Shown here piece by piece: positions 8,467-55,811 of a DNA stretch of 55,811 nucleotides. The stretch spans positions 1 to 55,811 of the forward strand of contig JAGVYL010000015.1 of assembly GCA_018303285.1 (NCBI GenBank), in the 5' to 3' direction. Numbering within the stretch: position 1 is the first letter of the stretch; each line of letters opens with the position of its first letter. Under the pieces are notes generated by a model. The model was not told the origin of the DNA. It was given only the letters and a program-made list of their open reading frames with translations, and ran no database searches. A program made the translations under genes and the position numbers. This stretch comes from Candidatus Woesearchaeota archaeon. Lineage in GTDB: Archaea > Nanobdellota > Nanobdellia > Woesearchaeales > GW2011-AR9.

Positions 8467-8562
8467 ACTAATTAGAATCAATAACACTCAGTTTAAATAT
8501 CTTACGAAATGTTTCCCTTTAGGTTTTTTTAGCGATTAAGAATGATTAGACTTAACTGCAAT

Positions 8563-8959: not shown

Positions 8960-10081
8960 TCAAAATAAGTGGTGTACAAATTGAAGCAATCTCGGCTCTT
9001 TAAGCAGGGAAGAAAAGAGAATTCTTCCCGGTTTTTCTCGATTATGTTTTTCTAAAATAGGAATTATTTTCTCTTGCCCCATCAATTGCATTAGTTTATT
9101 CCACTCGTCATCGCTCAGTTTATCCATCACTTTCCGCATCTGAAGATGCAGCCACAAATCCCGGCCGATCTCTTTCTTCCAAGTTTGCGCATAACTTTCT
9201 CTTCGTTTTAACGATTCCGCCAAGCATTCAGCTGCTTTCAATCCAGAAATAATTCCCCCTAGTGTAGTAGCCTTTACTTGGGTAGCAGCATCTCCCATCA
9301 AAACTAGTTTATTCTTAATCTCTGTCGGCAGTTTAGGATTATAGACTGGAATGATTCCTCCCTGCCATGCTCTGATTCTTATTTTACTCTTTCTTTTGTC
9401 ATTCAACTCTTTAAGGAAAATATCAAAGTACTGTCGAGGATTATTTCGTACAGCTACCCCAATTCTTGCTGTTTTATTGTCTTCCGGCACCACCCAGGCA
9501 AACAAGCCCGGAGCAAAACGATTGCCGAAGTATGCTTGATAAGCAGAAGGATCAAATTCTCCTGTGGCTACTGCCTGCACTCCGAAAAAGAATTCTCTCT
9601 GGCCGAACAAGCCGAATTGCTGAGCCACTGCGCTGTTCGGCCCGTCTGCTCCCACAACAAAATCCGCAGGAGCATAAATCCTTCGTCCGGCATTGTTGTC
9701 TTTAAATTGCAGCCAGTTATCTTCGGCAGAGATAAACCGGCGGCCGAGATGCAGTTTTGCTCCGTTGTCTACTGCTTTATCCACAAAATACCCATCAAAT
9801 TTGCTGCGGTCTATCACATATTCTTTCTGCTTTATTTCAATTTTCCGGCCGGAAGGAGCAATCAGCTCAATCCGTTCCGTCGTATTCACTAAAAATGACT
9901 GCAAAGATTTTGGCGGCAATCTCAGCTCATCAAAACTGCCGGTAAGCAGGCCGGTGCATTGAATCGGTTTGCCTATCTCTTTATGTTCTTCGCACAAAGA
10001 GACTTCATGTCCTTGAGCGGCCAAAAGAGAAGCAGCATAACCTCCCACAGGGCCGGCTCCAATAACTGCAATTTTAGGCAT
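8960..10081 (-). CDS. Geranylgeranyl reductase family flavoprotein (archaeal lipid saturation type)
   Basis: MPKIAVIGAGPVGGYAASLLAAQGHEVSLCEE (FAD Rossmann) and GKPIQCTGLL. Start set at ATG 10081. Confidence 0.85.
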   Translation of the reverse strand: MPKIAVIGAGPVGGYAASLLAAQGHEVSLCEEHKEIGKPIQCTGLLTGSFDELRLPPKSLQSFLVNTTERIELIAPSGRKIEIKQKEYVIDRSKFDGYFVDKAVDNGAKLHLGRRFISAEDNWLQFKDNNAGRRIYAPADFVVGADGPNSAVAQQFGLFGQREFFFGVQAVATGEFDPSAYQAYFGNRFAPGLFAWVVPEDNKTARIGVAVRNNPRQYFDIFLKELNDKRKSKIRIRAWQGGIIPVYNPKLPTEIKNKLVLMGDAATQVKATTLGGIISGLKAAECLAESLKRRESYAQTWKKEIGRDLWLHLQMRKVMDKLSDDEWNKLMQLMGQEKIIPILEKHNREKPGRILFSSLLKEPRLLQFVHHLF

Positions 10082-10136
10082 AAAGACAAGATGGCAAGAG
10101 AGTTTAAAAGATTGATTAAACAAGAATTCTGTTTTC

Positions 10137-10580
10137 TCAAGCTGGGAACCAAACCCCTGAGGAATCTCTTATCGGAGCATAAGCCTGCAAAGAAGGATTG
10201 GCCAACTCCAGTTTCACTCGTTCATCAATCTCCAGGAAATCTCGTTTTAACAGTTCTTCCAACGTGTATCGTTTATCTTTCGCTTCCGTATCTAACTGTT
10301 GCTTAATCTGGTGTACTCTTTCTCTTTGTCCATACAGATTAATTGTAACTCGGTTCTTATATGGATACCTAACAGTCCAATCGTGCAGGTAAGCCAGCAT
10401 CACTTCTTCCTGCTTAAAGCGATAAACATCGGTGGTATCAGTGTCTTCCCTTCTCGGCCGTTTGCTTAAAGAAACAATCTCAATCTTACCGTTTTCCTTC
10501 ACGCGTCCCATATATTCTCTAAATTCTCGGGGAGAATAAAGGCCGATAGCCTTGCCTTTGTAAGCAGTTAGTTTCATCAT
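10137..10580 (-). CDS. Hypothetical protein
   Basis: 147-aa ORF, co-directional and tightly packed with neighbours. No motif recognised. Confidence 0.5.
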   Translation of the reverse strand: MMKLTAYKGKAIGLYSPREFREYMGRVKENGKIEIVSLSKRPRREDTDTTDVYRFKQEEVMLAYLHDWTVRYPYKNRVTINLYGQRERVHQIKQQLDTEAKDKRYTLEELLKRDFLEIDERVKLELANPSLQAYAPIRDSSGVWFPA

Positions 10581-10650: not shown

Positions 10651-11082
10651 TCACTGAGAATAATTGCCTAAAGAATAAACGCCACTGCCCCATGATATAT
10701 CTTTAAGTTCTTTTCTTTCTGCATCAGACATCTGTTCGTAAATCCATCCTATCGGTGGGCAAGATGCGTTTTCATCATCGCCAATCAGTTCTGCGATTGT
10801 CACAAAGTTTACTACGTCGGGATTTCCTACGCTGTAAGTGGGAAACCGTTCACAATTCTCTGAAACGTAAGGTTGAATTAGTTCTAAACCTAACCGGACT
10901 CTTCTCCCCCGCCAGTCCGCACGTTCATTATCAAATTTTTCTTCTAATGGAGATTTAGTGTAAGAAACAGTCTTTTTATTATACTCTTCATTACACCCTT
11001 TTCGTGATAACGCCTGCAAAGCACTACCAGCGAAAAAACCGGCACCAATAATTATCAAAGTTTTTTTAGCCATCAATACCAT
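10651..11082 (-). CDS. Hypothetical protein with N-terminal hydrophobic/Rossmann-like segment
   Basis: MAKKTLIIIGAGFFAGSAL at the N-terminus. No further motif. Confidence 0.5.
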   Translation of the reverse strand: MVLMAKKTLIIIGAGFFAGSALQALSRKGCNEEYNKKTVSYTKSPLEEKFDNERADWRGRRVRLGLELIQPYVSENCERFPTYSVGNPDVVNFVTIAELIGDDENASCPPIGWIYEQMSDAERKELKDISWGSGVYSLGNYSQ

Positions 11083-11098
11083 TTTAGTTTATTCTAGT

Positions 11099-11335
11099 TT
11101 AAAGTTTATCACTTAATTCTTTTCGGTCTTCTCTAATCTCTTGTTTTAAAGCTTGGTTCGAAATGATTCTACCTAAAGCGTATACACCCATAAAGAAGAT
11201 GAATTGATAAGGATAAGGAACAAAAAGGGAATCCTCTTGACGAGTAGAAGCTTCTAAAATCATCCCACCGATACCTACCGCTTCTAAGATACTTCCCCAC
11301 CATATATCAAGATTTTTATGATATTGCATAACCAT
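11099..11335 (-). CDS. Small membrane protein
   Basis: 78 aa with two hydrophobic helices (WWGSILEAVGIGGMIL; FIFFMGVYALGRII). Confidence 0.45.
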   Translation of the reverse strand: MVMQYHKNLDIWWGSILEAVGIGGMILEASTRQEDSLFVPYPYQFIFFMGVYALGRIISNQALKQEIREDRKELSDKL

Positions 11336-11390
11336 TTTATATTCTTTCGGGTTTTTTTACAAGATTAAAAAATAAAAAAAAAAGAAATAC

Positions 11391-12671
11391 CTAATAGTAT
11401 TCCTTCACTTTCTCGTCTTCGTCTTTCTTGCCCATTCGGCTGAAGCCGATGATGATTCCTACAATCACCAGTAAGACAACTAAAGCAATCACTGCTACTT
11501 CAAGTCCTTTTCTTAACTTGCTGTAGTCAGCATCATTGCTGGCAGTCTTCACTACATTGGCCTTAAGACTGAACTGCTTCAGGACTTTCTCGCTGTTCTT
11601 CACAGTTACGCTGAAGATTTTTTCTCCTGCTTCAGCGGCTTCTTTGGCAGTGACATAAGCATAGGCTACTTTAGTTTCACCAGGAGCTAAGACGAAAAGA
11701 TTCTCGCTTAACTTAGCGTCAGCCCAATCTCCAGCCACTAACTCTAAAGCATAAGTCTGGGAAGCTTTTCCTTCATTGGTCAAGGTGATGGGATACATTG
11801 CCTGACTGCCGCCTGCAACCACATTCTGAGATTCCGGACCAGCAGTTAACACAAGCTTCTCGCCTGCAGTTTCCTGTTGAGCAGTTTCTCCCTCTAAAAC
11901 TTCCAAGGTGTAAGTCTTAGCAGTTACTTCTTTCATGTTGTCGTATTTGACAGTTACCTGAACCGGATACTTGCCGGCTTTGGCATCAGACGGAATCTTT
12001 AAGTAAAGTTCCTCTGTAATCTGAGTGTCATCAGCTTCTAAAGCATCGATGTAGTCAGAGGTGCTCACTCCCAATTCTGAGATAGAAGCAGTCACTTTGA
12101 CGTTTTCTTCATCTTTAACTCCGAAGTTCTCTACAACAACTTTTGCCTGTAAAGCTTTTCCTGCCTTTAATTTTAAGGAAGGGGAAAAGTCAGTGTCTTT
12201 AATTTCTACGCCGTGTCTTACTGCATCAACATAGATCTTAACGACTTTTTCCACAGCATCATGGTTCTTATCAGTGATTCTTACTCGCAAAAGATATTCA
12301 TCTTGGTCTAACTCTTTAGGTAGATTCAAGGAGAATTTCTTGTAGTAAGTTTTTCCTTCTTTCATATCAAATACATGGGTGGTGCCCACAAGAGGCTCGT
12401 AATCAGAGTATTCATAACCCTTAATGGAAGCTTCTACTTCTACGTCCTTAGCTTCACCAGTGGCCTTTAAACCAACTTCTACTTCAAGAGAGTCTCCTTC
12501 CTCGAAGTCAGTAACCTCAGTGACTAAGTCACCGTTGTCATTGAAGTCTACGTCATTGCCGTTGACTTCCATGCTCTTCACTTCTACCGGCATCGGAGAA
12601 GCAGAGGCGCTGGCTACTAAGAAAAAGCTCAGCACGACTAACGCAAATACACTCAAAATTTTATTCATCAT
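11391..12671 (-). CDS. Cell-surface protein with CARDB/Ig-like repeats and a C-terminal TM anchor
   Basis: Signal peptide MMNKILSVFALVVLSFFLVASASA and repeated beta-rich modules (...GKYPVQVTVKYD...). C-terminal anchor AVIALVVLLVIVGIIIGF followed by a charged tail. Confidence 0.75.
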   Translation of the reverse strand: MMNKILSVFALVVLSFFLVASASASPMPVEVKSMEVNGNDVDFNDNGDLVTEVTDFEEGDSLEVEVGLKATGEAKDVEVEASIKGYEYSDYEPLVGTTHVFDMKEGKTYYKKFSLNLPKELDQDEYLLRVRITDKNHDAVEKVVKIYVDAVRHGVEIKDTDFSPSLKLKAGKALQAKVVVENFGVKDEENVKVTASISELGVSTSDYIDALEADDTQITEELYLKIPSDAKAGKYPVQVTVKYDNMKEVTAKTYTLEVLEGETAQQETAGEKLVLTAGPESQNVVAGGSQAMYPITLTNEGKASQTYALELVAGDWADAKLSENLFVLAPGETKVAYAYVTAKEAAEAGEKIFSVTVKNSEKVLKQFSLKANVVKTASNDADYSKLRKGLEVAVIALVVLLVIVGIIIGFSRMGKKDEDEKVKEYY

Positions 12672-12701
12672 TTTATTTTCCCCCCATGTTTTGGTTGAGT
12701 T

Positions 12702-12722
12702 TTATCGACTTATTATCGACTT
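12702..12722. repeat. Tandem 10-nt direct repeat TTATCGACTT x2 (1-nt spacer) in the leader of the 11391-12671 gene
   Basis: Perfect copies at 12702-12711 and 12713-12722, 31-51 nt upstream of the minus-strand start at 12671. Confidence 0.8.
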
Positions 12723-12797
12723 TAAGACAGATTTTTTATTCAAATCCATCTTTCTTTATAAACCTTTCGCACGCTTTAGTATTTTAAAGTAGTTAAT

Positions 12798-15700
12798 CTA
12801 TTTTACCTCAACAGTACGATAGGCAACATTATACACTAAATCATTACTGACGGTAATCTTTACATCATATTCTCCAGCATCGATTCCTTCCGGAAGCTCC
12901 AAGGAAATCTGTTTGCTTATCTGCTTGTTCTTCTTGATATCAAACAGGCCGCTGATCTTCTTGATGCCTAATTCTGGGATAGATAGAGTGATGGTCACAT
13001 CTTTCATCTTCTGATATCCGCTGTTGACAATGTCTACTTTAGCAATCAAGGAATCGCCGGCAGAAACTTCATCTTCTTCGAAATAGATGTTGTCAAAACC
13101 CAGCTTATTGTTCTGGCCGCCCACCATTATATAATACACTTGCTGTTCAAGCATTTCTCCATCATAGGCTTCAATCACTACCTTGAACTGGCCGTTCTTT
13201 TCTACTTTCCAGGTTATCATACTGTTAGTATCCATTTCCATCCCTTCGGGTCCAGTTTTCAAACTCAAAGCCACAATCTCTCCTTCAGGATCTTTGGCTT
13301 TCACAGTGTACTGATAGGTTTTCCCCAAAGTAGCTTCTGTCGGAGCAACAGTGATAAAATACGGCTTCTTGTTGATTGTCGGTTTAGGCTCCTCTTTGGC
13401 CACCACTTTCAAGCTGACAGTTTGGCTGTCGCTTTCTTGGCCATCGCTTACAGTAAATGCTAGTTCATATTCTCCTGCATCTCCTTTAGCTGTCTGCCAA
13501 GAGAAAGCCCAAGTATGGTCTCCAACTTTTTCTACAGAGCCGACAGTATTATCTGCAGCTAGAGTCAGTTCATTTAAATCAATATCTTCTGCATCCAGAT
13601 AGAAAGACACCAAATCGCCTTCATAATAAAATTCAGGCAAGCCAGTTACTTCTTTCAGAACCGGAGCGTTATTCTCGGAAGGAATAACTGTTTCATCAGA
13701 AATTATAATGGTGAACTCCTGAGGAGCAGAGTCTTCTGTGCCGTCAAAAGCCACAAAGCTTACAGCCACTTCTCCTGCTTCTTTCGGTGTCCAGGTGATT
13801 TCTCCTGTTGCTCCATTCATGCTCATCTCTTCAGGTAAGCTAGTCTTGGCTATGAAAGTGATCAAATCTTCATCTTCGTCTACTGCAGTCAACTGATAAG
13901 TATAAGTTTCTCCTACAGTCGCTTCAGTACTAGGATTAGAGGTGATCATTGGTGCATGATTTTCAGGCAAGGGAGTTTCTTTAGTTACTTCTACATTTAA
14001 AGTTCCTTGAACTCCAGCTTTACCATCGGATAACTGGAAGATCACTGGGAAATTGCCGACAGTATTTGGCTTCCAGCTGAACAGCCACATATTTTTGCCG
14101 GCAGTAGTCAAACTCATGCCTTTAGTATTCATATTTAATATTTTTAAAGCAAGAAGCTCTTTGTCTTGGTCATAACCAGTAACAAGCTTGCTCACAGTTT
14201 CTCCTAATTTAATTTGCACCGTATCGAGCTCATTAAGTACCGGAGCATGATTTTCCGGCACAGGCTCTTCTTTCTTCTTGATGGCCAGAGTATAGATCTG
14301 TGAACCAGAATCTTTGCCATCGCTGACTTTGACTGCCACGTGATATTTTCCTTCTTTGATAGGAGTCCAGGCAATCATTCCGGTTTTACTGTTGATACCC
14401 ATTCCAGCCGGAGCAGCAGTCAAAGAGTAAGTTAATTTATCTCCTTTGTCAGCATCTAAAGCTCTAACATCATAAGTATACTTTGTGTTGACATAACCTT
14501 CTGAAACAGGTTTAGACGTGATTGTGGGTTTATGATTTCCCGGAATTGGTTTGTCAGTTACAGTAATCACAAACTTGTCAGAATCGCCTACTTTCTTGTC
14601 GGAAACATAAACATTGTATTCATAGACTCCTTCTTTGTCTGCAGTTCCTTTAAGCAGTCCAGTGGAAGCATCAATCTGCAGCCAGGTGGTGCCGGGAACT
14701 AAACTATAATCCAGCTTATCACCGTCTTCATCTGTGGCTTTGACTTGATAGCTGAAAACTTTTCCTTCTTCAAATGTTTGGTCGGGAATATTCTCTAATT
14801 CAGGAGCATGATTAACCTGAGGCTCAGCTTTATCTAAAACAGTAAGATCTACGTTCTGGCTGTTGCTGCCTTCAAAAGCATCTTTAGCAGTAAATGTTAA
14901 TTTATATTTTCCCGACTGTGATTTAGTGGGAGTCCAAGTAAAGGAAGCTTCTCCTTTATTATTAATTGTCAACTCTTTATCTACTAACGGTCCATTGGGA
15001 AAGAAGAAATTAAAGAAGCCAAAGAAACCGGTTAATTTTTTTTCTAGTTTAACATTTAGAGTTGCTTTATCTTTGTCTTGGTCATTGACTTGAAGTTTGA
15101 CTGATAAAGTTTCTTCTTCAGTCAAAATTTTTCCCGGCGTCATTTCCACCAGATTAACTGCAGGATTCTGATTGGTATCTTTAACTGTAAATTTTACTTC
15201 GTCTTGATCTTTAAGCAAACCATCACTGGCAGAGAAAATTAAATCAATCACTGCCTCTTTGCTTGGATGTTTTACTAGGTCATAACCAGGATTCCAAATG
15301 AAGACACCAGTTTCTTCATTGAAAGAAGCGCCAGACAAACCAGGTTTGTCTATAGTCTGATAGCCAGGAGTAGAGATAAAATATGAATAAAGGATCTTGT
15401 CCTTGTTTTCATCAGTAGCTTTCAATTGAAAAGTCAAACTTTCCCCTTCAACGAAAGTCATATCATTAACCGGAGATAAAATCGGAGCTTTATTATTTGA
15501 TTGAGGAAGGGCATCCTTCTCATCATTATCCTGATTGTTGCTGCATCCAGCATCTTGAAGGTCAACCTTGCCGTCTCCATCATTATCTTTTCCATCAGTG
15601 CATTGAGGCAAAGCAGCTTTCCCTTCAACTGTTAAATACAATACCGATGCATCACTGCCGTCAATGGCTTGGGCAGAGATCAGGATAGTATACTCTCCAG

Positions 15701-41977: not shown

Positions 41978-42568
41978 TTAAAAAATCTCCTTTTTAGTAC
42001 CGAAGCATTTTTGATTCTTTAAATAGTTTAAATAAAGAGTTTTAGTTGTTTTTGTGCATAAGGGGAGATTCTTATGTTTATCATCATGTTTGATATAGGA
42101 GATTATCTCTTTTTTACTCTTGCCGAGAGCCTTTCTAACCGCAGAAAAGCCTTTTGGGCTGGCCATCCAGATGAAATCAAGATCATTAAAAACTCTTAAA
42201 ACTTTATCTTTCTTATAAGAAGAATACTCCCCATAGATCCAGTTGTCATGTACGGAAATAAAATAACATATTTTCTTTGTTTTATCTTTGGAATATTTAA
42301 CTTTGTTAAGAATTTTAGCGGCAATCTTCGCGCCTTCAATCATGTGCGTCTTCTTTAATTTTTTATTAAGATAAACATGTTTACCCACACCATATCCTAC
42401 ATCATGCAGTATTACTAGGGGTAATAATAAACTTTTATCTATCTTTTCCTGTCCGCAAACAATCTCTGCTTCTTTTATCATCCAGCGGATATGATCGATG
42501 TCCATAGGTCTACCTTTCTTGTAATACGGTTTAGCCAATTTCCATATCTTAAAGTAAATATCTTTCAT
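41978..42568 (-). CDS. HD-domain phosphohydrolase
   Basis: LLLPLVILHDVGYG (H..HD) plus downstream His/Asp (ISVHDNW). Confidence 0.7.
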   Translation of the reverse strand: MKDIYFKIWKLAKPYYKKGRPMDIDHIRWMIKEAEIVCGQEKIDKSLLLPLVILHDVGYGVGKHVYLNKKLKKTHMIEGAKIAAKILNKVKYSKDKTKKICYFISVHDNWIYGEYSSYKKDKVLRVFNDLDFIWMASPKGFSAVRKALGKSKKEIISYIKHDDKHKNLPLCTKTTKTLYLNYLKNQKCFGTKKEIF

Positions 42569-42577
42569 ATTATTGAA

Positions 42578-43030
42578 TCAAATTCGTTTAGTCATTGCTA
42601 AAGCATCTTCTTTAAAGCCCCATTTCTGGTAAATTTCTATTGCTTTTTTGTTCTGGTACAAAACATCCAGTTGGCAGTACTTTATCTTTTTCGCCTTCAA
42701 AAATCTAAGAAAAGCAAGATACAGCTTTTTAGAATATCCTTTTCCTTGGCACGAAGGAGAAACAATTACATTTTCTATATACCCCACATTTCCTCGGGGT
42801 GCATGTTTAATGCGGCCGTGCAGTAAAGCCACTAATCGTTTCTCTTCATAAATGCCATATAAAAAATGATCCTTCTTAAAATAATCCCGGCAGTATTTGT
42901 CAGCGTTCTTTTTATTCATGTTTAAAACATAGATAAGAAAAGAAGTCACTTTCTTGTAAAACTCATTAGCTTCCAACACTAACCGATAGACTTGCTCTTT
43001 ATCACTTTTTCTAATTTTTAAAATTTTCAT
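42578..43030 (-). CDS. GNAT-family N-acetyltransferase
   Basis: IENVIVSPSCQGKGYSKKLY (Q/RxxGxG/A acetyl-CoA loop). Confidence 0.8.
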   Translation of the reverse strand: MKILKIRKSDKEQVYRLVLEANEFYKKVTSFLIYVLNMNKKNADKYCRDYFKKDHFLYGIYEEKRLVALLHGRIKHAPRGNVGYIENVIVSPSCQGKGYSKKLYLAFLRFLKAKKIKYCQLDVLYQNKKAIEIYQKWGFKEDALAMTKRI

Positions 43031-47833: not shown

Positions 47834-47938
47834 GCATCTTCATAGTTTAATTATAAAGATTTTGTAAGCGCCAACTATACTTTAATCAGCATCGTAGAAG
47901 AAAGTTTTAGATGATGAACAAATTGAGCATAAAACGAT

Positions 47939-48037
47939 GTTATGCTTCCCTGCCTCGAATTTTCCTTCGACCGTAGTCAGAGCTGGAAAATTCAGAGTCG
48001 CAGGGTCGAGGCGTAGCTGAGAAGTATTTTGGTGGGC
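47939..48037. repeat. Structured intergenic repeat, copy A (GTTATGC head, bulged 58-nt hairpin at 47948-48005, GAGAAGTATTTTGG tail)
   Basis: Pairs: CCCTGC/GCAGGG, 2-nt bulge TC, CTC/GAG, 1-nt bulge A, GAATTTTCC/GGAAAATTC, 19-nt loop. Same geometry as copy B with different helix sequences. Confidence 0.7.
48023..48037. repeat. Left arm of the 15-bp inverted repeat bracketing the Fic gene
   Basis: AGTATTTTGGTGGGC. The reverse complement of 49113-49127 is AATATTTTGGTGGGC (14/15 identical). Confidence 0.7.
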
Positions 48038-48082
48038 TAAGTTGTTCCGTTATACGACAAAGAGGCAGGTGTACGTGCACAG

Positions 48083-49030
48083 TTATGTTTCGGTTTGTTT
48101 TTCTTTGTGCCCGTAACTTCTAATTTGATCAATAATCAAGTCTAGCATTTCAGCAATATAGTTTTTGTTATCGTTCTTATCAGCTTTCTCTATAGCTTGA
48201 TAGTATTGTTCTCTTTTTTCAAATGGGATAAAAAACATGGGATAACTCTTCTTCATTAAAACAAAATTCATTACTGCTCTGGCAGTTCTACCATTTCCAT
48301 CTTCAAAAGGATGAATCCAAGCAATACGAGCATGGATTATGGTAGCTAACTCAAAAGGATGAAGCTTATTTTTATTGGTATTGTACCATTTGAACAGGTT
48401 GAGTAAGTGCCTTTTAACTTCCTCGTGTTTCGGCGGAATATGATTAGAACCATGAATTTGCACATCAAAGAACCGAACTCGTCCGCCATAAACTACGCCC
48501 GTGTTTTTGGTTAAGATACCATTTAATTTTTCTAAAAAATGCTTGTTTAAATCTCCTTTGTAAGATTTAAGATATTCCAAGCATTCTCTTCCGTTAATAG
48601 CTTCGTTGTAATCTTCTGCTCTCACGCCAGAAGGAATAACTTTATCTTTAAGAATTAAAGCAGTTTGTCTGAGGGTGAGTCTATTTCCCTCGATAGCATT
48701 GGTATGATAGGTAAAGCGGATAACAAAGTCTTCGTTTAATTTTTCTCTAACACTTTTAGGGATTTGCTTGAGCCACTCTTTGTAGCTTTCTTTCAAATCC
48801 TGCAAAGTCTCTGCATCGTGCTCGGAAAGATAAGCATATTCTGATCTTTTGATGAATTGTTGCGATTCTGCTTCTATTTTCTTAGTGGATTGAGCTAGTT
48901 CTTCTTTAGACGGTTGTTTGTCTCCGAAGTAAATCCGCACTTTTTTCCATTTATTCAAGCCTAAGCGGATATTTTTAGTGAGATAGAAGTATTCTTTCTT
49001 ATTACGTTTGATAATTTCTACGTAGGCCAT
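48083..49030 (-). CDS. Fic-domain protein (AMPylase type) with an N-terminal inhibitory motif
   Basis: Canonical HPFEDGNGRTARAVMNF (HxFx[DE]GNGRxxR) and an upstream TNAIEGN matching the (S/T)xxxE(G/N) auto-inhibition helix. Confidence 0.9.
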   Translation of the reverse strand: MAYVEIIKRNKKEYFYLTKNIRLGLNKWKKVRIYFGDKQPSKEELAQSTKKIEAESQQFIKRSEYAYLSEHDAETLQDLKESYKEWLKQIPKSVREKLNEDFVIRFTYHTNAIEGNRLTLRQTALILKDKVIPSGVRAEDYNEAINGRECLEYLKSYKGDLNKHFLEKLNGILTKNTGVVYGGRVRFFDVQIHGSNHIPPKHEEVKRHLLNLFKWYNTNKNKLHPFELATIIHARIAWIHPFEDGNGRTARAVMNFVLMKKSYPMFFIPFEKREQYYQAIEKADKNDNKNYIAEMLDLIIDQIRSYGHKEKQTET

Positions 49031-49112
49031 ATACTAATGTATGGGCACGTGATATTTAAATGTTTCGGTTAAATGTGGACATACAGATGATCATCCGTTT
49101 TTAGTTCATCGT

Positions 49113-49127
49113 GCCCACCAAAATATT
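49113..49127. repeat. Right arm of the 15-bp inverted repeat bracketing the Fic gene
   Basis: GCCCACCAAAATATT. See 48023-48037. Confidence 0.7.
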
Positions 49128-49139
49128 AAGCTTAATGGT

Positions 49140-49260
49140 GTTATGTTCTCGGCTCCTCGTGAGCCCCCTCGAAAACACGAAAGTGTTTTCAGAGCTGGGG
49201 CGATAGAGATGAGACGACCGAGCATTTTTTCCCGCAGGAAAAAAGCGGAGGAGTTTTGGG
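49140..49260. repeat. Structured intergenic repeat, copy B (GTTATGT head, 39-nt hairpin at 49163-49201, 48-nt module shared with copy C)
   Basis: Pairs: GCCCC/GGGGC, bulge CT, CTC/GAG, bulge A, GAAAACAC/GTGTTTTC, GAAA loop. Then GATGAGACGACCGAGCATTTTTTCCCGCAGGAAAAAAGCGGAGGAGTT (49208-49255). Confidence 0.7.
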
Positions 49261-49304
49261 TTTTTCACATAAAGTTTATAAGGATTCTAAATTTTCTGTT
49301 TGGA

Positions 49305-49688
49305 ATGATAGCGGGGATTAACAATAACGCAGATATAAACTCCTACTTGGAAGCAGAGGAGATAGAGAGGCTTCCACGAGAAACTATCGAAGGAGTTCTT
49401 ATAGATATACGAAAACCGAAGAGGCAAGGAACTTTGACTATATCTGTTGGAGGAGAAGGTGGCATTAAGGTAGATGATAAAGATTATTGGGTGACAGAAG
49501 AAGGTTTTCGTGTAGTAGCTATTATGACACCAAGACATTATCAAGAACTCCGAGAAAGAGCAATGATTGGAGTAAGAATACCTGATAAAGGTAAGTTTCA
49601 TGTATATGACCTATCAAGGCTCGATACTTGGAGAGCAACTGAAGTAAAAAATTTAGAATCCTATCGTGATAATAAACAGATTGCCTGA
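49305..49688 (+). CDS. Hypothetical protein (127 aa)
   Basis: Start moved to ATG 49305 because the track ORF N-terminus (49143-49304) is translated repeat B. TTTATAA at ~49275-49281 lies ~25 nt upstream. No family recognised. Confidence 0.5.
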   Translation: MIAGINNNADINSYLEAEEIERLPRETIEGVLIDIRKPKRQGTLTISVGGEGGIKVDDKDYWVTEEGFRVVAIMTPRHYQELRERAMIGVRIPDKGKFHVYDLSRLDTWRATEVKNLESYRDNKQIA

Positions 49689-49726
49689 AAGGTTCTGGTG
49701 AAAAACCCAAAATTGAACATAATTAT

Positions 49727-49845
49727 GTTATATTCTTTTCTCCCCGAGGCGAAGGCGAGGCAAATTTGGGACAAATTTACACTCCTGCCGAGACTCGGGA
49801 TGAGAAAACCGAGCATTTTTTCCGCAGAAAAAAGCGGATGAGTTG
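49727..49845. repeat. Structured intergenic repeat, copy C (GTTATAT head, divergent hairpin, 46-nt module shared with copy B)
   Basis: CCCGAG/CTCGGG outer helix (49743-49748/49794-49799). GATGAGAAAACCGAGCATTTTTTCCGCAGAAAAAAGCGGATGAGTT (49799-49844) differs from copy B by 3 substitutions and two 1-nt indels. Confidence 0.65.
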
Positions 49846-49916
49846 AGTTCTCGCTTTATCAATACTGCGAAGCAGACTAGAATTCGTTAGGGAAGGGGGG
49901 GGCGTCCGTTTTTTTG

Positions 49917-49937
49917 CTTCTTTTTCCTAAAAAGAAG
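49917..49937 (-). terminator. Hairpin downstream of the helicase gene stop
   Basis: CTTCTTTTT/AAAAAGAAG 9-bp stem with a 3-nt loop, flanked by A/T runs. It lies 31 nt beyond the minus-strand stop at 49968. Confidence 0.4.
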
Positions 49938-49967
49938 AATAGGAAGGGGCGTCGTTAAAAAGTAGTT

Positions 49968-52900
49968 TCATCTCTTTAATTTTATTTTGTCTTTTTCTTC
50001 ATCTATTAATTTATTCTTTATTAAATGATTAATTGCTTCCTCAACTTTATCTCTTATCTTATTTCCTGTTCGGTTATTATTATAAATTCCTCTTGCTATA
50101 TCTGAGGTTATAGCTTTTTTTGTTGCGCTGAAAGAATTCTTTAAAATATCAATTATTGCCCCAGCTAATTCTTCTTTAGGGATTAAAATAAATGACCTGT
50201 CACTTTCTTCTGAAAGTTTTACTTCGGAAAATATATTTATAGGTTCAAGAGAAACAGTGTTTTGGTAAATATTGATTCCCTTATCTTTCTTTAATTCCTT
50301 TAATATTTCTTCAAATAAATGTTCTATTCTTCGTCCTAACTTTTGAATACCCATTGAAGACAATACTCTTTTGTATAATAATTCTTTTTCAATCGGACTC
50401 TCTATTTCTAGAACTTGCATTATTTTTCTTTTAATGACAGAAACTGCCGAATAATTGTTAAGGCTTCCGTAACTGTCAAATTCTAAATCCATATCTGATT
50501 TTGAAAGCTCTGCTATTTTGTATTTTTTATATTTATCCTTGAGTTCAATTTCTTTAAAGTCTTCTTTTTCATCAATTTTTGATAAACAATTATTCTGTTT
50601 GGGTTCTGAAATACCTTTTGATTTCAAGATATTTTTAACTTTCTCCCTTACCTTTTCGATTTCGTATTCCTTGTTATTTAACCAATCATCAGACCAAATT
50701 CTGATTATATTCCAACCGAGATTCTCTAATACAACTTGCCTGATTTTGTCCCTATCTCTTGCAAATCTTGAAGAATGGTATTGTGAGCCATCACATTCAA
50801 CACCCAAAATATATTCTCCGGGTTTTTTTGGATGTTTTATGGCTAAATCTACCCTGTACCCAGAACAACCAATCTGACAGCTTACATCAAATCCTTCTTT
50901 TATTAATTCCTCATAAACAGCTTCTTCAAAAGAAGAATCAAATTGTAGCCCCTCGGTTTTCTGTAAGTACTTAGTAAAATCTTTATTTTTTGCAAAATCT
51001 AAATAATATTTTAAGTACCTCACGCCTTCTGCATTAATTTTATCTTCGTCTAACTCGTCAGGAAGCATCGACGAAATAACAACTGTTTTAAATCTTGAAC
51101 GAGTTATTGATACATTAAGTCTTTTGTAGCCTCCTTCTTTATTCAATGGACCAAAATTATAACTAAATTTACCTGAGGAGTCTTTGCCATAACCTACACT
51201 TAGAATAATAATGTCTCTTTCGTCACCTTGCACGGTTTCAAGATTTTTAACAAATACTTCCTCGTTATTAACATCGATTGACTCTTCTATAGGTATTCCT
51301 GCTATTTGAAATTCCTCTCTAATTGCATTTTCTTGAGCCATACTAAAAGCAATAATTCCAAATGATTTTTTTGGAAACTTCTTTTTTAAATCCCTATAAA
51401 TTTTAACAATCTCCCTCGCTTCAATCCTATTTTTCCTGGATTTTCCTCTGTCATAGACCCCTTGTTTAATATATACAAAATCCAGTCCGCTGTTATCATT
51501 TTCCTTAGGATTTGGGAAGGTTATTAAACGGTTTTCATAAAAGAACCTATTGGAAAAAGATATAAGTGTTTCATTATTACTTCTATAATGCCAATCCAGT
51601 GATTTGGTTCTGAATTTAGTTATTGATTCACTTAAGAAACTCTCTAAATCTTCAATTTCTTCTTCACTTTCATCATCTTGGCTTAAGAAGAATGATGTAG
51701 GTGGGAGTTGTTGTGTATCTCCCATTATTATAGCCTGTTTTGCTCTTATAAGACAAGGAACAGCGTCTTCGGGCATAATTTGAGAGGCTTCATCAAATAT
51801 GACTATATCAAAATTTATATTTTTTGGATTAATATATTGACTAACCGTCAGAGGACTCATCATAAAACAAGGTTTCAAAGCAAAGGCTAAATCTGGTATT
51901 TGTTCTAATAAATCCCTAATAGGTTTTAATCTTCTTTTCTTTTCATTTTCTCGTTTGAGAATGGAAACCTCATTAGAACCCATACTTGAGTAATTGTCTT
52001 TTGGTTGTCTATCTTCAACAGACTCCATAACTTTATACCTAAAAATATCTCTAACTTTTATATCATCATCTCTGAATTTTTCAACAAGACTTTTTGGAGA
52101 AAACTTATTTGATTTTTTGAGTATTTCATCTAAAATCTGGAGATAGTAGGACTTAAGAAAAACCTTGCTGAATTCACTTCTGACAGCATTATCGAAATAT
52201 TTTTTTATAAACTCCTTTACTTCTTCATCTAGCTTTATGAATTCTTCTTTAAATGCAAGAACCTCTTTAAGATTCTTAAATTGGTTATTCAGTTTCTCCA
52301 AAACAGTTAGAACATCTTGAATGTTCTCTAAACTGGTTAATTGTTTAACCTCAAAGAACCCTTCTGTTTCATTTAAAGAATAATAAAAATCTCTAAATAG
52401 TCCTTTCTGATTACAATTAGATAGTGACTGAATTATAGCATAATTTTTACTTTTTGAAATTTTATTTGATATTTCAAAGAGAGGTATCAAGTCTTTACAA
52501 TATTTATCTAATCTGGAGATATTACTTAGATTGCTATAATCACCGATAATCTCTGATTTTTTCTTGTTCTTTGAGACAATTTCATTAAGTTTTCTATTTA
52601 TTTTTTCATATTTGGCTTTCTCATCAAAAAGAGATATCCATTCATTATATCCTATTTTTATTTTTGCATATTTATCCAAATTAGCCTTATTGGTTTTATA
52701 TTCCTGATTAAAAAGTCTAACGAAAAACGAGGTTTCTCTGAATATCTTTTCAACTTGATGTGTGTTTAAATCGTCAATAAAAGAATCTTTTACTCTCTTT
52801 GTCATATCTTCCCGCATCTCTTTTAGCTCCAAAAGAACAGATAGTAACTCTTTTATCAGAGAATTATATTCTTCAAAATCTTTTGAAAGCAAATATGAGA

Positions 52901-54485
52901 ATTCGTGGTTAAATTTGAAAGCAATAATTTTATCGTTTAATTCGTTTAGTAAGTTTAACTCGGCAATAAAGTTTATCTCTATCCTAGTTTCTATTTTTAG
53001 TTTATCTATAAAACAAATTATTTTTTTAGTATTCTGATCAAAATTCTTTAGATTAGAACTGAATCTGTTAATAGCCAAAGAAGTATTCTTGTCTTTCTGA
53101 TAATTGAAATATATGTTTTCGTTTGGATTTCCTAACACAATAAAAGAGGAATTAAACCTCTCTAGCTTGTCAAATAATATTGAAAACTCTTTTTTGTTTA
53201 GAGATATTGACCTTTTTAATGGGAAATCTACAATCTCGTTTTTTGATAGTTTCGCCAATTCTCCTCTAACATCATAAACAGATAACTCCCAAGGAGAGTG
53301 TTTTTCGCATAAAAATTGATAGAATTCATTGATATCCTTTTGAGATTTTAAATAAGATGAAACATCCTCTCGTTTTATCATTGAAGGTATAACTGGAGAA
53401 GTTTGAAGTTCTTTCATAAATTGTTTTATAACTTCTCTTTTGTTTCCTTTGTAATTATGTAAATTTAGGCAGTATCTTCCTAATCCTACTTCATCTAGTC
53501 TTTTTTGGACTACATTCAAAGCAGCCATTTTTTGGCTCACAAAAAGAATCTTTTTATTCTTTTCAATAAGAGCTGAGATAATATTTACAATTGTTTGACT
53601 TTTACCAGTTCCCGGAGGTCCTTGTAATACAAAAGTAACTCCTGCTTTTGCTAACTCTATTGCTCTTTTTTGGGAAGAATCTGCTGGAAGAACATCTACG
53701 CTTGTAGTATCATCAAATTCCTCTCTCTGCAATTCAGCAATTTCATCCTGTAAAGCCTCTCTATCTCCAACATACGCTTTCACTAAAGGGCTATCTTTAA
53801 CCAGTTTTTCATTAAAACTCAAATCTTCATACATGATAAATTTTTGATACGAAAAAATATCCATGTAGACATCTTCGGTAATTTTCCAATCCTTCATTCC
53901 TTCTATTTGCTTCTTAAGGTAAGACAGATATTCCGAAGGGGTTTGATTCTCAAATTCATTTATTTCTATGCCGAAATCGTGAGAAAGCTTCTCTATTAAT
54001 GCTGGATTTAATTGCATTTCTCCAGAATTAGAATCAATCTCAAATTTATGAGTTTCTTTACTAACAGTAGGTAGCCTGCTAATTTCCAAAGGCCAAAGAA
54101 AAATAGGGGCTTCTAAAAATAACTCGGAGTTGTCTGCATCTTTATATTTCAAAATTCCTAAAGATAAAAAACAAGTGCTAATTCCTAACTCTTGAAAGTT
54201 TTCTTTTGCCTTTAAATAAAGGGCATATAATTTTTTCTCAACAGTTTCCTCGTCTTCAGAACATAACCACTGCCTGTCTTTAGCATTATCCTTTTTCTCT
54301 TTTAGGATAAATATGTTTTGCTCATTTTCCAAATCTTCAATTACTTTAATGAAAGAGGGAGATATTATTTTTAGTGATTTTGATTTTGTAAATCTATAAC
54401 GCACAAGATTATTTCTTTTAGATAAATCTATAAGTTTCTTTTTCCAATAGTCAATTTTTTTGTTAATTATCTGTTTAGTATCCAT
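49968..54485 (-). CDS. 1505-aa SF1 (Upf1/Dna2-like) helicase with a DUF4011-type N-terminus, a Vsr/DUF559-like endonuclease domain and a DUF3320-like tail
   Basis: KLIDLSKRNNLVRYRF (DUF4011-like). Helicase motifs GPPGTGKSQ, IFDEASQ, MGDTQQLPPT, TVQGDERD, LNVSITRSR. Nuclease module YRVDLAI...LGVECDGSQYHSS..ARDRDKIRQVVLENLGWNIIRIWSDDW. Confidence 0.9.
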   Translation of the reverse strand: MDTKQIINKKIDYWKKKLIDLSKRNNLVRYRFTKSKSLKIISPSFIKVIEDLENEQNIFILKEKKDNAKDRQWLCSEDEETVEKKLYALYLKAKENFQELGISTCFLSLGILKYKDADNSELFLEAPIFLWPLEISRLPTVSKETHKFEIDSNSGEMQLNPALIEKLSHDFGIEINEFENQTPSEYLSYLKKQIEGMKDWKITEDVYMDIFSYQKFIMYEDLSFNEKLVKDSPLVKAYVGDREALQDEIAELQREEFDDTTSVDVLPADSSQKRAIELAKAGVTFVLQGPPGTGKSQTIVNIISALIEKNKKILFVSQKMAALNVVQKRLDEVGLGRYCLNLHNYKGNKREVIKQFMKELQTSPVIPSMIKREDVSSYLKSQKDINEFYQFLCEKHSPWELSVYDVRGELAKLSKNEIVDFPLKRSISLNKKEFSILFDKLERFNSSFIVLGNPNENIYFNYQKDKNTSLAINRFSSNLKNFDQNTKKIICFIDKLKIETRIEINFIAELNLLNELNDKIIAFKFNHEFSYLLSKDFEEYNSLIKELLSVLLELKEMREDMTKRVKDSFIDDLNTHQVEKIFRETSFFVRLFNQEYKTNKANLDKYAKIKIGYNEWISLFDEKAKYEKINRKLNEIVSKNKKKSEIIGDYSNLSNISRLDKYCKDLIPLFEISNKISKSKNYAIIQSLSNCNQKGLFRDFYYSLNETEGFFEVKQLTSLENIQDVLTVLEKLNNQFKNLKEVLAFKEEFIKLDEEVKEFIKKYFDNAVRSEFSKVFLKSYYLQILDEILKKSNKFSPKSLVEKFRDDDIKVRDIFRYKVMESVEDRQPKDNYSSMGSNEVSILKRENEKKRRLKPIRDLLEQIPDLAFALKPCFMMSPLTVSQYINPKNINFDIVIFDEASQIMPEDAVPCLIRAKQAIIMGDTQQLPPTSFFLSQDDESEEEIEDLESFLSESITKFRTKSLDWHYRSNNETLISFSNRFFYENRLITFPNPKENDNSGLDFVYIKQGVYDRGKSRKNRIEAREIVKIYRDLKKKFPKKSFGIIAFSMAQENAIREEFQIAGIPIEESIDVNNEEVFVKNLETVQGDERDIIILSVGYGKDSSGKFSYNFGPLNKEGGYKRLNVSITRSRFKTVVISSMLPDELDEDKINAEGVRYLKYYLDFAKNKDFTKYLQKTEGLQFDSSFEEAVYEELIKEGFDVSCQIGCSGYRVDLAIKHPKKPGEYILGVECDGSQYHSSRFARDRDKIRQVVLENLGWNIIRIWSDDWLNNKEYEIEKVREKVKNILKSKGISEPKQNNCLSKIDEKEDFKEIELKDKYKKYKIAELSKSDMDLEFDSYGSLNNYSAVSVIKRKIMQVLEIESPIEKELLYKRVLSSMGIQKLGRRIEHLFEEILKELKKDKGINIYQNTVSLEPINIFSEVKLSEESDRSFILIPKEELAGAIIDILKNSFSATKKAITSDIARGIYNNNRTGNKIRDKVEEAINHLIKNKLIDEEKDKIKLKR

Positions 54486-54486
54486 C

Positions 54487-55488
54487 TTAAATCAAATCAT
54501 CCAATCCTTTTTTATCTATTAGTTGTACTCCATTTTTACTTGCTAATTCAAATGCAGATTTTGTAAATGTTCCAGTAGTTATGACCATTGCCTTGTCGCA
54601 GTCATAAAATTTCATAGAAGCGACGACTTCTTGAACCGCTTTATTTCCGACGCTACCCACATATTTTTTTATTTGAACAGCAATAAGAACACCTTTTTTA
54701 TCTTCTAAGATTATGTCTGCTCCTTGATCGCCTGTTGCTTTTGTAATTTTAAGATTATATCCTTTTTTCTTAAAGCAAGAAGCAATAAATTTCTCGAATT
54801 CCAGTCCAGACATGGCTTGAATTTCTTTTTTTGAGGAGCTTTTTTCAGTTCGTAAAAGCTTTTCTTCAAAATTATCTAATTCTCTTTTTTGTTCTATTTC
54901 ATTTATTTTTTTTATTATCTCATCAACAGTAAGTTTTATCCCAGTTTTTTTAATAAGTTCATCAATAATATGCTCTATATACTCTTTTGCAGTTTTTTCG
55001 TAATCAAATATCAATCTATCCAAAATCAAAGATGCTAGTTCATCTAAATTATATTCTTTTTCTTTGACATAATTAACTAATTCATCAACTTTTGTGACAA
55101 ACTCCAAATTTTGAACAAGTAAATAAAACTCTTCTTCAGAGAATAATAGTCCCATCTTATTTTCAAGTAACCTTTTAAAAATAGGCAAATTATCAACAGA
55201 GGATTCATCATTATATCTTTTAGCATATTTTAAGAATAAATCGATAATTTCATCATTAATAGAATTATTTATGGATTTGAATTTTTCATATCTTTCTCTT
55301 ATTGAGATAGGATTATCAGCATTTTGCCATATCCATTTCTCAAAGTTATTATAAATACCTTTTTCTTGTTTATAGCCTTCGATTTCTGTTCTTAATTTTT
55401 TAAGGGCCTTTAATTCTTCCGTAGAAATCTCCTTTCTTCCTAATTCTCGCATTCTTCGAGCCCATTTATTTTCTTTTTTGGTATCCAT
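54487..55488 (-). CDS. Fusion of an unknown ~220-aa helical domain with an Mrr-type (PD-(D/E)xK) restriction-endonuclease core
   Basis: C-terminus GLEFEKFIASCFKKKGYNLKITKATGDQGADIILEDKKGVLIAVQIKKY...AVQEVVASMKFYDCDKAMVITTGTFT (Mrr_cat pattern D...QxK). The stop is 1 nt from the helicase start. Confidence 0.8.
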   Translation of the reverse strand: MDTKKENKWARRMRELGRKEISTEELKALKKLRTEIEGYKQEKGIYNNFEKWIWQNADNPISIRERYEKFKSINNSINDEIIDLFLKYAKRYNDESSVDNLPIFKRLLENKMGLLFSEEEFYLLVQNLEFVTKVDELVNYVKEKEYNLDELASLILDRLIFDYEKTAKEYIEHIIDELIKKTGIKLTVDEIIKKINEIEQKRELDNFEEKLLRTEKSSSKKEIQAMSGLEFEKFIASCFKKKGYNLKITKATGDQGADIILEDKKGVLIAVQIKKYVGSVGNKAVQEVVASMKFYDCDKAMVITTGTFTKSAFELASKNGVQLIDKKGLDDLI

Positions 55489-55492
55489 TCAT

Positions 55493-55811
55493 TTATCTCC
55501 TCTTGTTTACTTCCATCTTGAATTTATCCCTTATCTCATTAACTTTCTTCTCATTTAATTTAATAATAATTGACTTACATTTTACTAAAAACTCAGGAGC
55601 ATTCTTTACCATTTTATTATATTGCTCATCTGGAACAGTCCTGTCAATGTAATATTGAGAATCTATTCTTGCCTTCAGAGAATCTTCTGTGAAATCAAGA
55701 TCTTCTTCGCTGAAAAATTCTCTAAGAAATCTCTTTGCGAACGCTATTGTGCAAGAATGAATCTCACATTTTATGCCTATTTTTGTCAAAACTGAGTAAA
55801 GCGAAAAATAG
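55493..55811 (-). CDS. HEPN-domain protein, partial (frame stays open to the right edge)
   Basis: ...KIGIKCEIHSCTIAFAKRFLREFF...LKARIDSQYYIDRTVPDEQYNKMVKNAPEFLVKCKSII fits the COG2250-type HEPN pattern (H...F...; R....Y....t.ee......a.ef). The track start is TTG with no in-frame stop upstream inside the window. Confidence 0.55.
   Translation of the reverse strand, partial: YFSLYSVLTKIGIKCEIHSCTIAFAKRFLREFFSEEDLDFTEDSLKARIDSQYYIDRTVPDEQYNKMVKNAPEFLVKCKSIIIKLNEKKVNEIRDKFKMEVNKRR

Follow-up and report, generated by a model that had tools for sequence, protein, structure and literature searches.

A predicted mobile cassette of defence-type genes in a lineage-specific operon arrangement in a Woesearchaeota archaeon

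At the right end of a 55,811-nt stretch of DNA from a Candidatus Woesearchaeota archaeon (contig JAGVYL010000015.1; hereafter the window), three minus-strand open reading frames (ORFs) encode a HEPN protein, an Mrr-family nuclease and a large helicase-nuclease (Table 1). The HEPN and Mrr genes are separated by 4 nt and the Mrr and helicase genes by 1 nt. The HEPN gene is cut by the window edge, and the missing part was found on a 145-kb contig, L001 (ENA ERZ27254749, k141_110638; L-numbers denote fetched loci or contigs that were compared with the window). L001 is identical to the window over positions 49968–55811 and continues past its right edge; in NCBI its proteins, among them MBS3118494.1, are assigned to Candidatus Woesearchaeota archaeon. 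There, the edge ORF forms the last 106 codons of a gene for a 160-amino-acid (aa) protein, and a gene for a 196-aa winged helix-turn-helix (wHTH) nucleotidyltransferase (MNT) lies upstream of it with an 8-nt overlap. The unit thus has four genes, in the order MNT, HEPN, Mrr and helicase. An initial annotation, made from the letters of the window, had described the three ORFs with their narrow gaps and an operon running past the right edge, and both points agreed with the coordinates and with L001. A TTTAAATA box, invariant across all copies of the unit, was located approximately 30 nt 5' of the MNT start codon, and oligo-T runs and a hairpin were observed after the helicase stop codon. The box is consistent with a single archaeal promoter upstream, beyond the window edge, from which the four genes would be co-transcribed.

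Judged by its sequence, the block is a horizontally moved cassette of approximately 6.7 kb in the genome of this DPANN archaeon. Its GC content was 0.27–0.32 (0.20–0.24 at third codon positions, GC3), compared with 0.39 in the remaining window, and its proteins had a Lys+Asn+Ile fraction of 0.28–0.30, compared with 0.14–0.24 for the genes at 22–37 kb. The GC content of the block was that of low-GC Woesearchaeota contigs (0.28–0.32), unlike that of the host contig, and the change in GC lies directly next to a repeated element, present there in three copies (47918–49861). Homology between the window contig and the contigs L090, L091 and L011 was confined to L001 8867–9998 (approximately 92% nucleotide identity) and 11022–15603 (approximately 94%). 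The same cassette occurred in at least three different left flanks; L003 and L005 also have different left flanks. The homology with L090 stopped at L001 15603, which is position 49886 of the window. The C-rich boxes at this 3' end are inverted copies of G-rich boxes 5' of the MNT gene (beyond the window edge), so that the cassette is bounded by the inverted boxes GGGAAGGGGGCG/CGCCCCCTTCCC; the end boxes read GGGAAGGGGGCGTC and GACGCCCCCTTCCC in L001, and GGGGAGGGGGCG and CGCCCCCTCCCC in L090. The ends were set with blastn and alignment; a repeat search was too noisy in the AT-rich cassette. In a search for known RNAs and tRNA integration sites, the window contained no Rfam match at the gathering threshold and no tRNA. 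Full-length relatives of the helicase (33–43% identity) were present on about a dozen IMG/VR contigs. The AT-rich and Lys/Asn/Ile-rich character of the block, the compositional switch at the repeats and the horizontal acquisition had all been proposed in the initial annotation; they held up, the acquisition through the GC contrast, the 92–94% identical cassette in unrelated flanks and the bounding repeats.

The 1505-aa protein joins an N-terminal DUF4011 domain, an SF1 helicase core, a Vsr-type endonuclease domain and a DUF3320 segment, the last of which corresponds to a winged-helix region (Anantharaman 2013, PMC3710099). In addition to Walker A, the core contained the motifs DEASQ, GDTQQLPP, QGDERD and TRSR, and a helical insertion of approximately 480 aa separates motifs I and II. 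This layout and these motifs were as first described, with a Pfam match for each domain and each quoted motif found in the translation. In an alignment of 23 sequences (30–88% identity), Walker A, DEASQ, GDxQQLPP, QGDERD and TR were invariant. The nuclease residues D1213, C1231-D1232-G1233, R1243, R1245 and D1246 were also invariant, and E1230 and H1237 were kept in at least 90% of the sequences. The PDB relatives detected by sequence were the helicase cores of Upf1, Sen1 and IGHMBP2 only.

Among catalogued defence proteins, PDC-S37, a single-gene candidate in PADLOC, matched the large protein end to end (aa 5–1502 against profile positions 4–1545 of 1550, 1152.8 bits, E = 0). The best NCBIfam match was ProA (NF058533, 'anti-phage protein ProA'; 1099.7 bits, cut-off 1500, profile 354–1897 of 1903). 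Hhe of E. coli matched aa 659–1335 in NCBIfam (NF042953; 713.8 bits, cut-off 2000, profile 1032–1726 of 1797) and aa 797–1286 in PADLOC (515 bits). As controls, L058 and L024 reached approximately 2200 bits across the entire ProA profile and the core-only Chitinophaga protein L046 reached 1637.6 bits. L058, L024 and approximately 25 other bacterial loci among L019–L089 carry an N-terminal extension of approximately 360–400 aa with an NCLD...GHAFxGxW motif, and proteins of this form are what NCBIfam names ProA; the extension is weakly transglutaminase-like (a weak Pfam Transglut_core match). The partial ProA and Hhe scores, together with these controls, place the window protein in a core-only archaeal branch of the superfamily. 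On profile matches it is a PDC-S37-type, core-only relative of Hhe and ProA. In the literature we found no paper naming PDC-S37, which is a catalogue candidate only, and no primary paper on ProA, which is known from the name of its NCBIfam model alone.

The 160-aa protein matched the Pfam HEPN family (PF05168 type) with 25.7 bits (gathering score 22), and its upstream partner matched NTP_transf_2 (32.8 bits, gathering score 21) and nearly the whole profile of PDC-M05A in PADLOC (55.4 bits). The HEPN protein had no PDC-M05B match in PADLOC at E ≤ 0.01. Its motif follows an R-x3-Q-Y pattern that recurs in two paralogous pairs. The HEPN assignment of the initial annotation stood as to the domain, which exceeded the gathering score; the canonical R-x4-6-H motif was absent. 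The two genes are predicted to be a toxin-antitoxin (TA)-type pair, similar to PDC-M05. In another strain (L003, positions 8078–8546), the HEPN gene was interrupted by a stop at codon 6 (after MDKIK) and had a 6-nt deletion. The MNT gene of L003 was intact and approximately 10% diverged, its Mrr segment was identical to that of the window, and its helicase ORF was open over the visible 386 aa to the contig end. A broken HEPN gene beside an identical Mrr gene points to mosaicism and to a dispensable HEPN protein. A second wHTH-MNT/HEPN pair (PDC-M05A/B matches), with a tandem AsnC-type regulator, was observed past the right edge of the window at L001 2415–6235.

The 333-aa protein consists of a helical region of approximately 220 aa and an Mrr catalytic core, as the initial annotation had it; Pfam and AlphaFold agree on this division. 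Residues 1–222 had no Pfam match. The AlphaFold model (predicted local distance difference test, pLDDT, 84.5) showed eleven helices followed by the nuclease fold. In a Foldseek search of the PDB, the nuclease domain alone was matched (MspJI, AspBHI, AF1548, EndoMS and LlaBIII), and no fold match was obtained for the N-terminal region despite the confident model. Residues E232, D254, D258, Q272 and K274 were invariant across 120 homologues. Intact catalytic motifs were likewise present in the SF1 helicase and in the Vsr-type domain of the large protein. Partial PADLOC matches were obtained to PDC-S02 (59.9 bits) and to the C-terminus of ZorD (67.1 bits). Most homologues had one or two hydrophobic, probably membrane-spanning N-terminal segments, and the TM2 domain family was also matched by one of them. 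Such segments were absent from the window protein and from the homologues nearest to it. The possibility that the protein is a detached N-terminus of ProA was rejected, as it had no NCBIfam match to ProA and the N-terminal domain of ProA is weakly transglutaminase-like.

The co-occurrence of the genes was assessed with Mrr_cat, MNT and HEPN profile searches of the ORFs of all 140 fetched loci. The 333-aa protein was encoded identically on 24 public contigs, and the trio of HEPN, Mrr and helicase genes was restricted to contigs with this identical protein; a single-protein metagenome scan returned 6 loci. In the closest cassettes (L011, a Woesearchaeota metagenome-assembled genome of approximately 31% GC, L090 and L091; helicase approximately 94% identical at the aa level), the order was MNT, HEPN, a 24-nt gap and helicase, without Mrr. 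L092 and L094 (88–89%) had no upstream pair; a different wHTH-MNT/HEPN pair, 28–30% identical to that of the window, was located directly downstream. In L012 (78%), the helicase gene lay among housekeeping genes with a small zinc-ribbon gene directly upstream, and other neighbours were also present at L010, L093, L103, L105, L106, L107 and L140 (51–60%). The neighbours at 51–60% identity included a ribbon-helix-helix (RHH)-like gene, a Schlafen/AlbA_2 gene, type I, II and IIG restriction-modification (RM) systems, genes for an integrase, a transposase and a Cas4-like nuclease, as well as primase/PCNA and metabolic genes. The upstream neighbours of approximately 30 bacterial homologues were heterogeneous (permease-like, kinase-like) on sequence inspection, with no conserved partner. 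Mrr homologues (35–58% identity) occurred in six independent contexts, none of which adjoined a DUF4011 helicase, and no Mrr_cat gene was found next to any other helicase homologue in the 140 loci, approximately 120 distant ones included. The initial annotation had proposed HEPN, Mrr and helicase as one candidate defence module and had not recognised their combination as a named system. The trio is absent from the closest cassettes, the six Mrr contexts and the approximately 120 helicase loci; the large protein maps onto PDC-S37, and HEPN pairs with MNT in the manner of PDC-M05. Absence elsewhere and mapping to listed systems were outcomes that the annotation itself had named as counting against a new trio, and that reading was given up.

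Two further observations concern the genes beside the helicase homologues. A homologous 48-aa RHH-like gene was located 0–3 nt 5' of the helicase gene in the 54–59% clades (L093, approximately 2575–2721; L106, 4851–4997; L140, 422–568) and is probably a transcriptional regulator of it. In the 60% relative L103, the helicase gene shares its last 4 nt with a gene for a Cas4-like PD-(D/E)xK nuclease (9503–10180). This is a second and independent instance of an accessory nuclease with the restriction-endonuclease fold next to this helicase, so that accessory nucleases recur.

The Mrr gene lies in a segment of recombinant appearance (Table 1). Identity to the Mrr-less cassette of L090 was approximately 93% up to L001 9917 and then approximately 60% over the last 80 nt of the HEPN gene. 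At the other side, the first 26 nt of the helicase gene (encoding MDTKQIINK) were those of L140, a member of the 59% clade; the 94% relatives start with MDVSKVIDK. The Mrr and helicase genes both begin with ATGGATACYAAA, and the junctions read HEPN 3' end-ATGGATACCAAAAAAG, and GATTTAAGATGGATACTAAACAG. Most simply, this pattern would result from homologous recombination with a relative that was not sampled and that would already have had the order HEPN-like gene, Mrr, helicase. The donor lineage was not found among the fetched loci; the contig of P0131 ends 571 nt upstream of its helicase. A TATA-like leader of the helicase gene, present in L090 and L092, was lost here with the Mrr insertion, so that helicase expression probably depends on upstream transcription. 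We regard the Mrr gene as a lineage-specific, late insertion in the cassette.

Table 1. Cassette genes, protein domains and neighbouring features, with positions in the window.
Feature	Position	Strand	Remarks
Helicase-nuclease gene	49968..54485	(-)	1505 aa
Mrr-family nuclease gene	54487..55488	(-)	333 aa
HEPN gene, codons 55–160 of 160 (3' two-thirds)	55493..55811, open to right edge	(-)	identical stretch in L001
DUF4011 N-terminal domain, aa 17–167	53985..54437	(-)	Pfam PF13195, 88.5 bits
SF1 helicase core, aa 269–1139	51069..53681	(-)	AAA_11/AAA_12 Pfam matches
Walker A GPPGTGKS	53598–53621	(-)	within SF1 helicase core
Vsr-type (MTES_1575/DUF559) endonuclease domain, aa 1186–1282	50640..50930	(-)	Pfam PF18741, 119 bits
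DUF3320 segment, aa 1346–1388	50322..50450	(-)	Pfam PF11784, 38.6 bits
Mrr_cat domain, aa 223–333	54490–54822	(-)	Pfam PF04471, 107.5 bits (gathering 21)
Helical N-region of Mrr protein, aa 1–222	54823–55488	(-)	AlphaFold model
HEPN motif R103-IDSQ-Y108	55652–55669	(-)	R-x4-Y, not canonical R-x4-6-H
Putative recombinant segment with Mrr	54459..55572	(-)	last ~27 HEPN codons, Mrr gene, first ~9 helicase codons
Cassette 3' end	49886..49967	(-)	oligo-T runs, hairpin (49903–49951), two C-rich boxes; alignment
Element copy E2, flanks cassette	49709..49861	(-)	nhmmer, alignment
181-aa ORF, own small cassette between two element copies	49143–49688	(+)	ORF call
Element copy E3, between 181-aa ORF and Fic gene	49121..49264	(-)	nhmmer, alignment
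Fic-domain protein, 315 aa, neighbouring cassette	48083..49030	(-)	Pfam Fic, 73.3 bits
Element copy E4, between Fic gene and FAD-oxidoreductase gene	47918..48046	(-)	nhmmer, alignment

The repeated element is hairpin-rich, intergenic and 130–160 nt long, with an invariant TAACA[T/G]CGATTA...CAAT core (GCCTAA-CATCGA-TTAGGC in some copies), and was located with an nhmmer model and alignment. The window holds three copies only; a fourth lies directly 5' of the MNT gene, beyond the edge (L001 8644–8785). Elements and genes thus alternate: a first element is followed by MNT-HEPN-Mrr-helicase, a second by the 181-aa ORF and a third by the Fic gene, after which comes the fourth. L090 contained at least six copies and L091 at least nine, in one orientation, flanking the cassette and a HicA-like/HicB-like pair (named by sequence inspection). 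In L091 (positions 10–1476), several copies were clustered, and the intervals between them contained hardly any coding sequence or none. The arrangement looks like a cassette array. The z-scores of the DNA fold of the elements were mixed (-3.9 to +0.4). The canonical attC layout, with R'' (RYYYAAC) and R' (GTTRRRY) 50–130 nt apart, was not found in either orientation when the alignment was inspected by eye. A XerA-like recombinase (216.9 bits, cut-off 220) beside a Hef helicase-nuclease at L001 2415–6235 looks like a housekeeping protein.

The Fic protein of the neighbouring cassette matched PDC-S04 (103.8 bits) and SoFic (99.8 bits) in PADLOC, which makes it a second defence-candidate cassette beside the operon. 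The 181-aa ORF had no match in Pfam, PADLOC or NCBIfam; its first third overlaps element copy E3, so that its real start is probably internal. Other low-GC genes of the window (0.30–0.33; 4048–4731, 5146–5838, 7702–8487 and 41978–43030) belong to a set of two S-adenosylmethionine (SAM) methyltransferases, an APH-type kinase, an HD-domain protein and a GNAT acetyltransferase, and may be further acquired accessory genes.

The nucleic-acid-targeting, defence-type gene content seen in the initial annotation was confirmed by family matches in Pfam, PADLOC and NCBIfam. The locus holds recognisable defence-type genes in a lineage-specific operon arrangement and is not a new kind of system. As our best explanation, which we consider somewhat probable, it is a mobile cassette of three stacked, co-transcribed and separable defence-type modules under one promoter. 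The four genes would be transcribed from the MNT promoter. The nucleotidyltransferase would keep its HEPN partner inactive; once released, the HEPN protein may arrest cell growth, as in TA-type growth-arrest or addiction modules. The Mrr protein may act as a stand-alone PD-(D/E)xK nuclease and provide a second DNA-cleaving activity, with its helical N-terminal region as a putative sensor or regulator. The helicase-nuclease would use its C-terminal winged-helix region to bind DNA and its Upf1-like SF1 motor to translocate with ATP; foreign DNA would then be cleaved by the Vsr-type domain, with no cognate methylase or modification partner involved. We infer the co-transcription and the independence of the modules, their biochemical activities and an antiviral function. 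Several points weigh against this explanation. We know of no experiment on PDC-S37 or on any archaeal member of its family. The catalytic histidine is absent from the HEPN protein, which makes a role as RNase toxin uncertain. The core genes of Pseudomonas aeruginosa include a DUF4011 gene, which flanks a defence hotspot (PMC10250203), so that not all members of the family need be defence genes. The tight spacing and the lost helicase leader fit a coordinated unit as well as they fit stacking. Additionally, a wHTH-MNT/HEPN pair adjoins the helicase in two, probably three, Woesearchaeota arrangements (5' of it in the 94% clade, 3' of it in the 88% clade, and in the inferred donor), which is more than we would expect from the approximately one other such pair seen in some 100 kb of flanking sequence.

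These last points bear on an integrated system, a 'split Hhe' in which the helicase-nuclease would sense foreign DNA and control a separate HEPN effector, checked by MNT, and, in this lineage, an Mrr effector. We consider it unlikely, and keep it in view mainly because the mosaic junctions imply a donor in which a HEPN-like gene was already followed by Mrr and then by a helicase gene from a different clade. It would also suit the narrow gaps with a single conserved promoter, the movement of MNT, HEPN and helicase as one unit between genomic contexts, the second, divergent pair directly downstream of the 88% helicase, and the overlapping Cas4-like gene of L103. The helicase family is moreover known with a fused HEPN domain (PMC3710099), and separate effectors would parallel N-terminal effector fusions. 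However, the fused HEPN domains are of the Swt1/Abi2 type (PMC3710099), whereas the one encoded here is of the MNT-associated PF05168 type. The 51–78% helicase homologues and the approximately 120 distant loci have no MNT, HEPN or Mrr gene, Mrr homologues stand alone elsewhere, the HEPN gene is knocked out in one strain, and the presumed donor did not appear among the fetched loci. More doubtful again is an extended form, in which an archaeal system resembling a split Hhe would be shuttled among DPANN genomes as a cassette with its own promoter in an integron-like array with TAACA sites that are not canonical attC.

A role of the helicase-nuclease in genome maintenance or repair instead of immunity, with the TA-type pair and Mrr as unrelated selfish or accessory neighbours, is improbable. 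Vsr-type nucleases and Upf1-like helicases do act in repair and in RNA/DNA surveillance, some archaeal homologues lie among housekeeping genes (L15e, primase/PCNA, metabolic genes), and the core status of the P. aeruginosa gene fits as well. The distribution of the family is patchy, though, and recent transfer is indicated by the high nucleotide identity across contexts (92–94%) and the foreign GC content; relatives are found beside RM systems, integrases and transposases and on IMG/VR contigs, and the closest named relatives, Hhe and ProA, have been annotated or shown to be anti-phage. We give equally little credit to an addiction or stabilisation device, in which MNT and HEPN, much as HicAB and RelE-type pairs on related contigs, would stabilise an integron-like TAACA array that carries the nucleases as cargo. 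The element flanks each neighbouring cassette in constant orientation in the window and in L090/L091, its copies cluster in L091 and flank the HicA-like/HicB-like pair, and the cassettes of archaeal integrons, those of Nanoarchaeota included, are mostly of the TA and restriction kinds (PMC9668308). The missing attC layout and mixed fold scores argue against it, as do the own promoter and several genes of the cassette, which are unlike typical integron cassettes, and a nearby recombinase, the only one, of housekeeping XerA appearance. The device is compatible with the stacked-module explanation and does not exclude it.

Hardly any study has addressed the defence systems of DPANN archaea and their viruses. 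Versions of the cassette that have Mrr, that lack it or in which the HEPN gene is broken provide a natural comparison, which could tell if the widespread helicase-nucleases of the PDC-S37, Hhe and ProA kind act alone or with accessory effectors. The locus also shows the growth of a defence operon through recombination between related cassettes, and the repeated intergenic element may mark a mechanism of cassette exchange in Woesearchaeota. Known families are thereby extended to a new host group and a new gene arrangement; current ideas are not overturned.

The initial annotation had likened the logic of the operon to Nhi or Mokosh, which did not hold: the matches were partial and limited to the helicase core, and the PDC-S37 score was more than tenfold higher. 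Nhi, like the window protein, combines an Upf1-like SF1 helicase with nuclease activity, but no Nhi model was among the PADLOC matches. Mokosh likewise combines an Upf1-like SF1 helicase with a nuclease, and MkoA and MkoC matched the helicase core (95.7 and 77.8 bits). These matches were confined to helicase motifs, and, in contrast to Mokosh, the operon has no PLD nuclease partner or domain. Giant proteins with HEPN, transglutaminase, SF1, Vsr and wHTH domains have been predicted to be modification-independent restriction proteins with HEPN as a back-up (PMC3710099). They share the Vsr restriction endonuclease family (PF18741) and the DUF3320/wHTH tail with the window protein, to which neither a HEPN nor a transglutaminase domain is fused; here a gene of its own encodes HEPN, with MNT as its partner. 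The E. coli protein Hhe, which joins a helicase to a Vsr-type nuclease, provides anti-phage defence from a single gene (Gao et al. 2020, as described in papers citing it). It defends alone against lambda, T3, T7 and PhiV-1 and loses activity with the Vsr-domain substitution E1731A (bioRxiv 10.1101/2022.06.16.496414), and its apparent triggers are T7 DNA-metabolism genes. Like Hhe, the window protein has DUF4011, an SF1 helicase and a Vsr-type nuclease in one polypeptide, with the nuclease motif intact. Unlike Hhe, it is archaeal and approximately 300 aa shorter, the first approximately 1030 positions of the Hhe profile are unmatched, and HEPN is encoded by a separate gene of a different HEPN family. 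The core is also common to ProA, whose N-terminal domain of approximately 350 aa (profile 1–353) is missing in the window protein.

The 333-aa protein shares Mrr_cat and the D...D...QxK core with Mrr and type IV restriction nucleases, and its fold is closest to the nuclease domains of MspJI and AspBHI. It differs from the classical E. coli-type Mrr in having the helical region of approximately 220 aa in place of the Mrr_N winged helix. The MNT and HEPN genes overlap as in MntA/HepT-type (type VII) TA pairs and PDC-M05, and both products exceeded the Pfam cut-offs. In contrast to these pairs, the MNT protein has an N-terminal wHTH domain and the HEPN protein has the R-x4-Y motif. PDC-S37 has the same length as the large protein and the same DUF4011-SF1-Vsr-DUF3320 architecture; PDC-S37 is listed as a single-gene candidate, whereas the gene in the window sits in an operon with three others.

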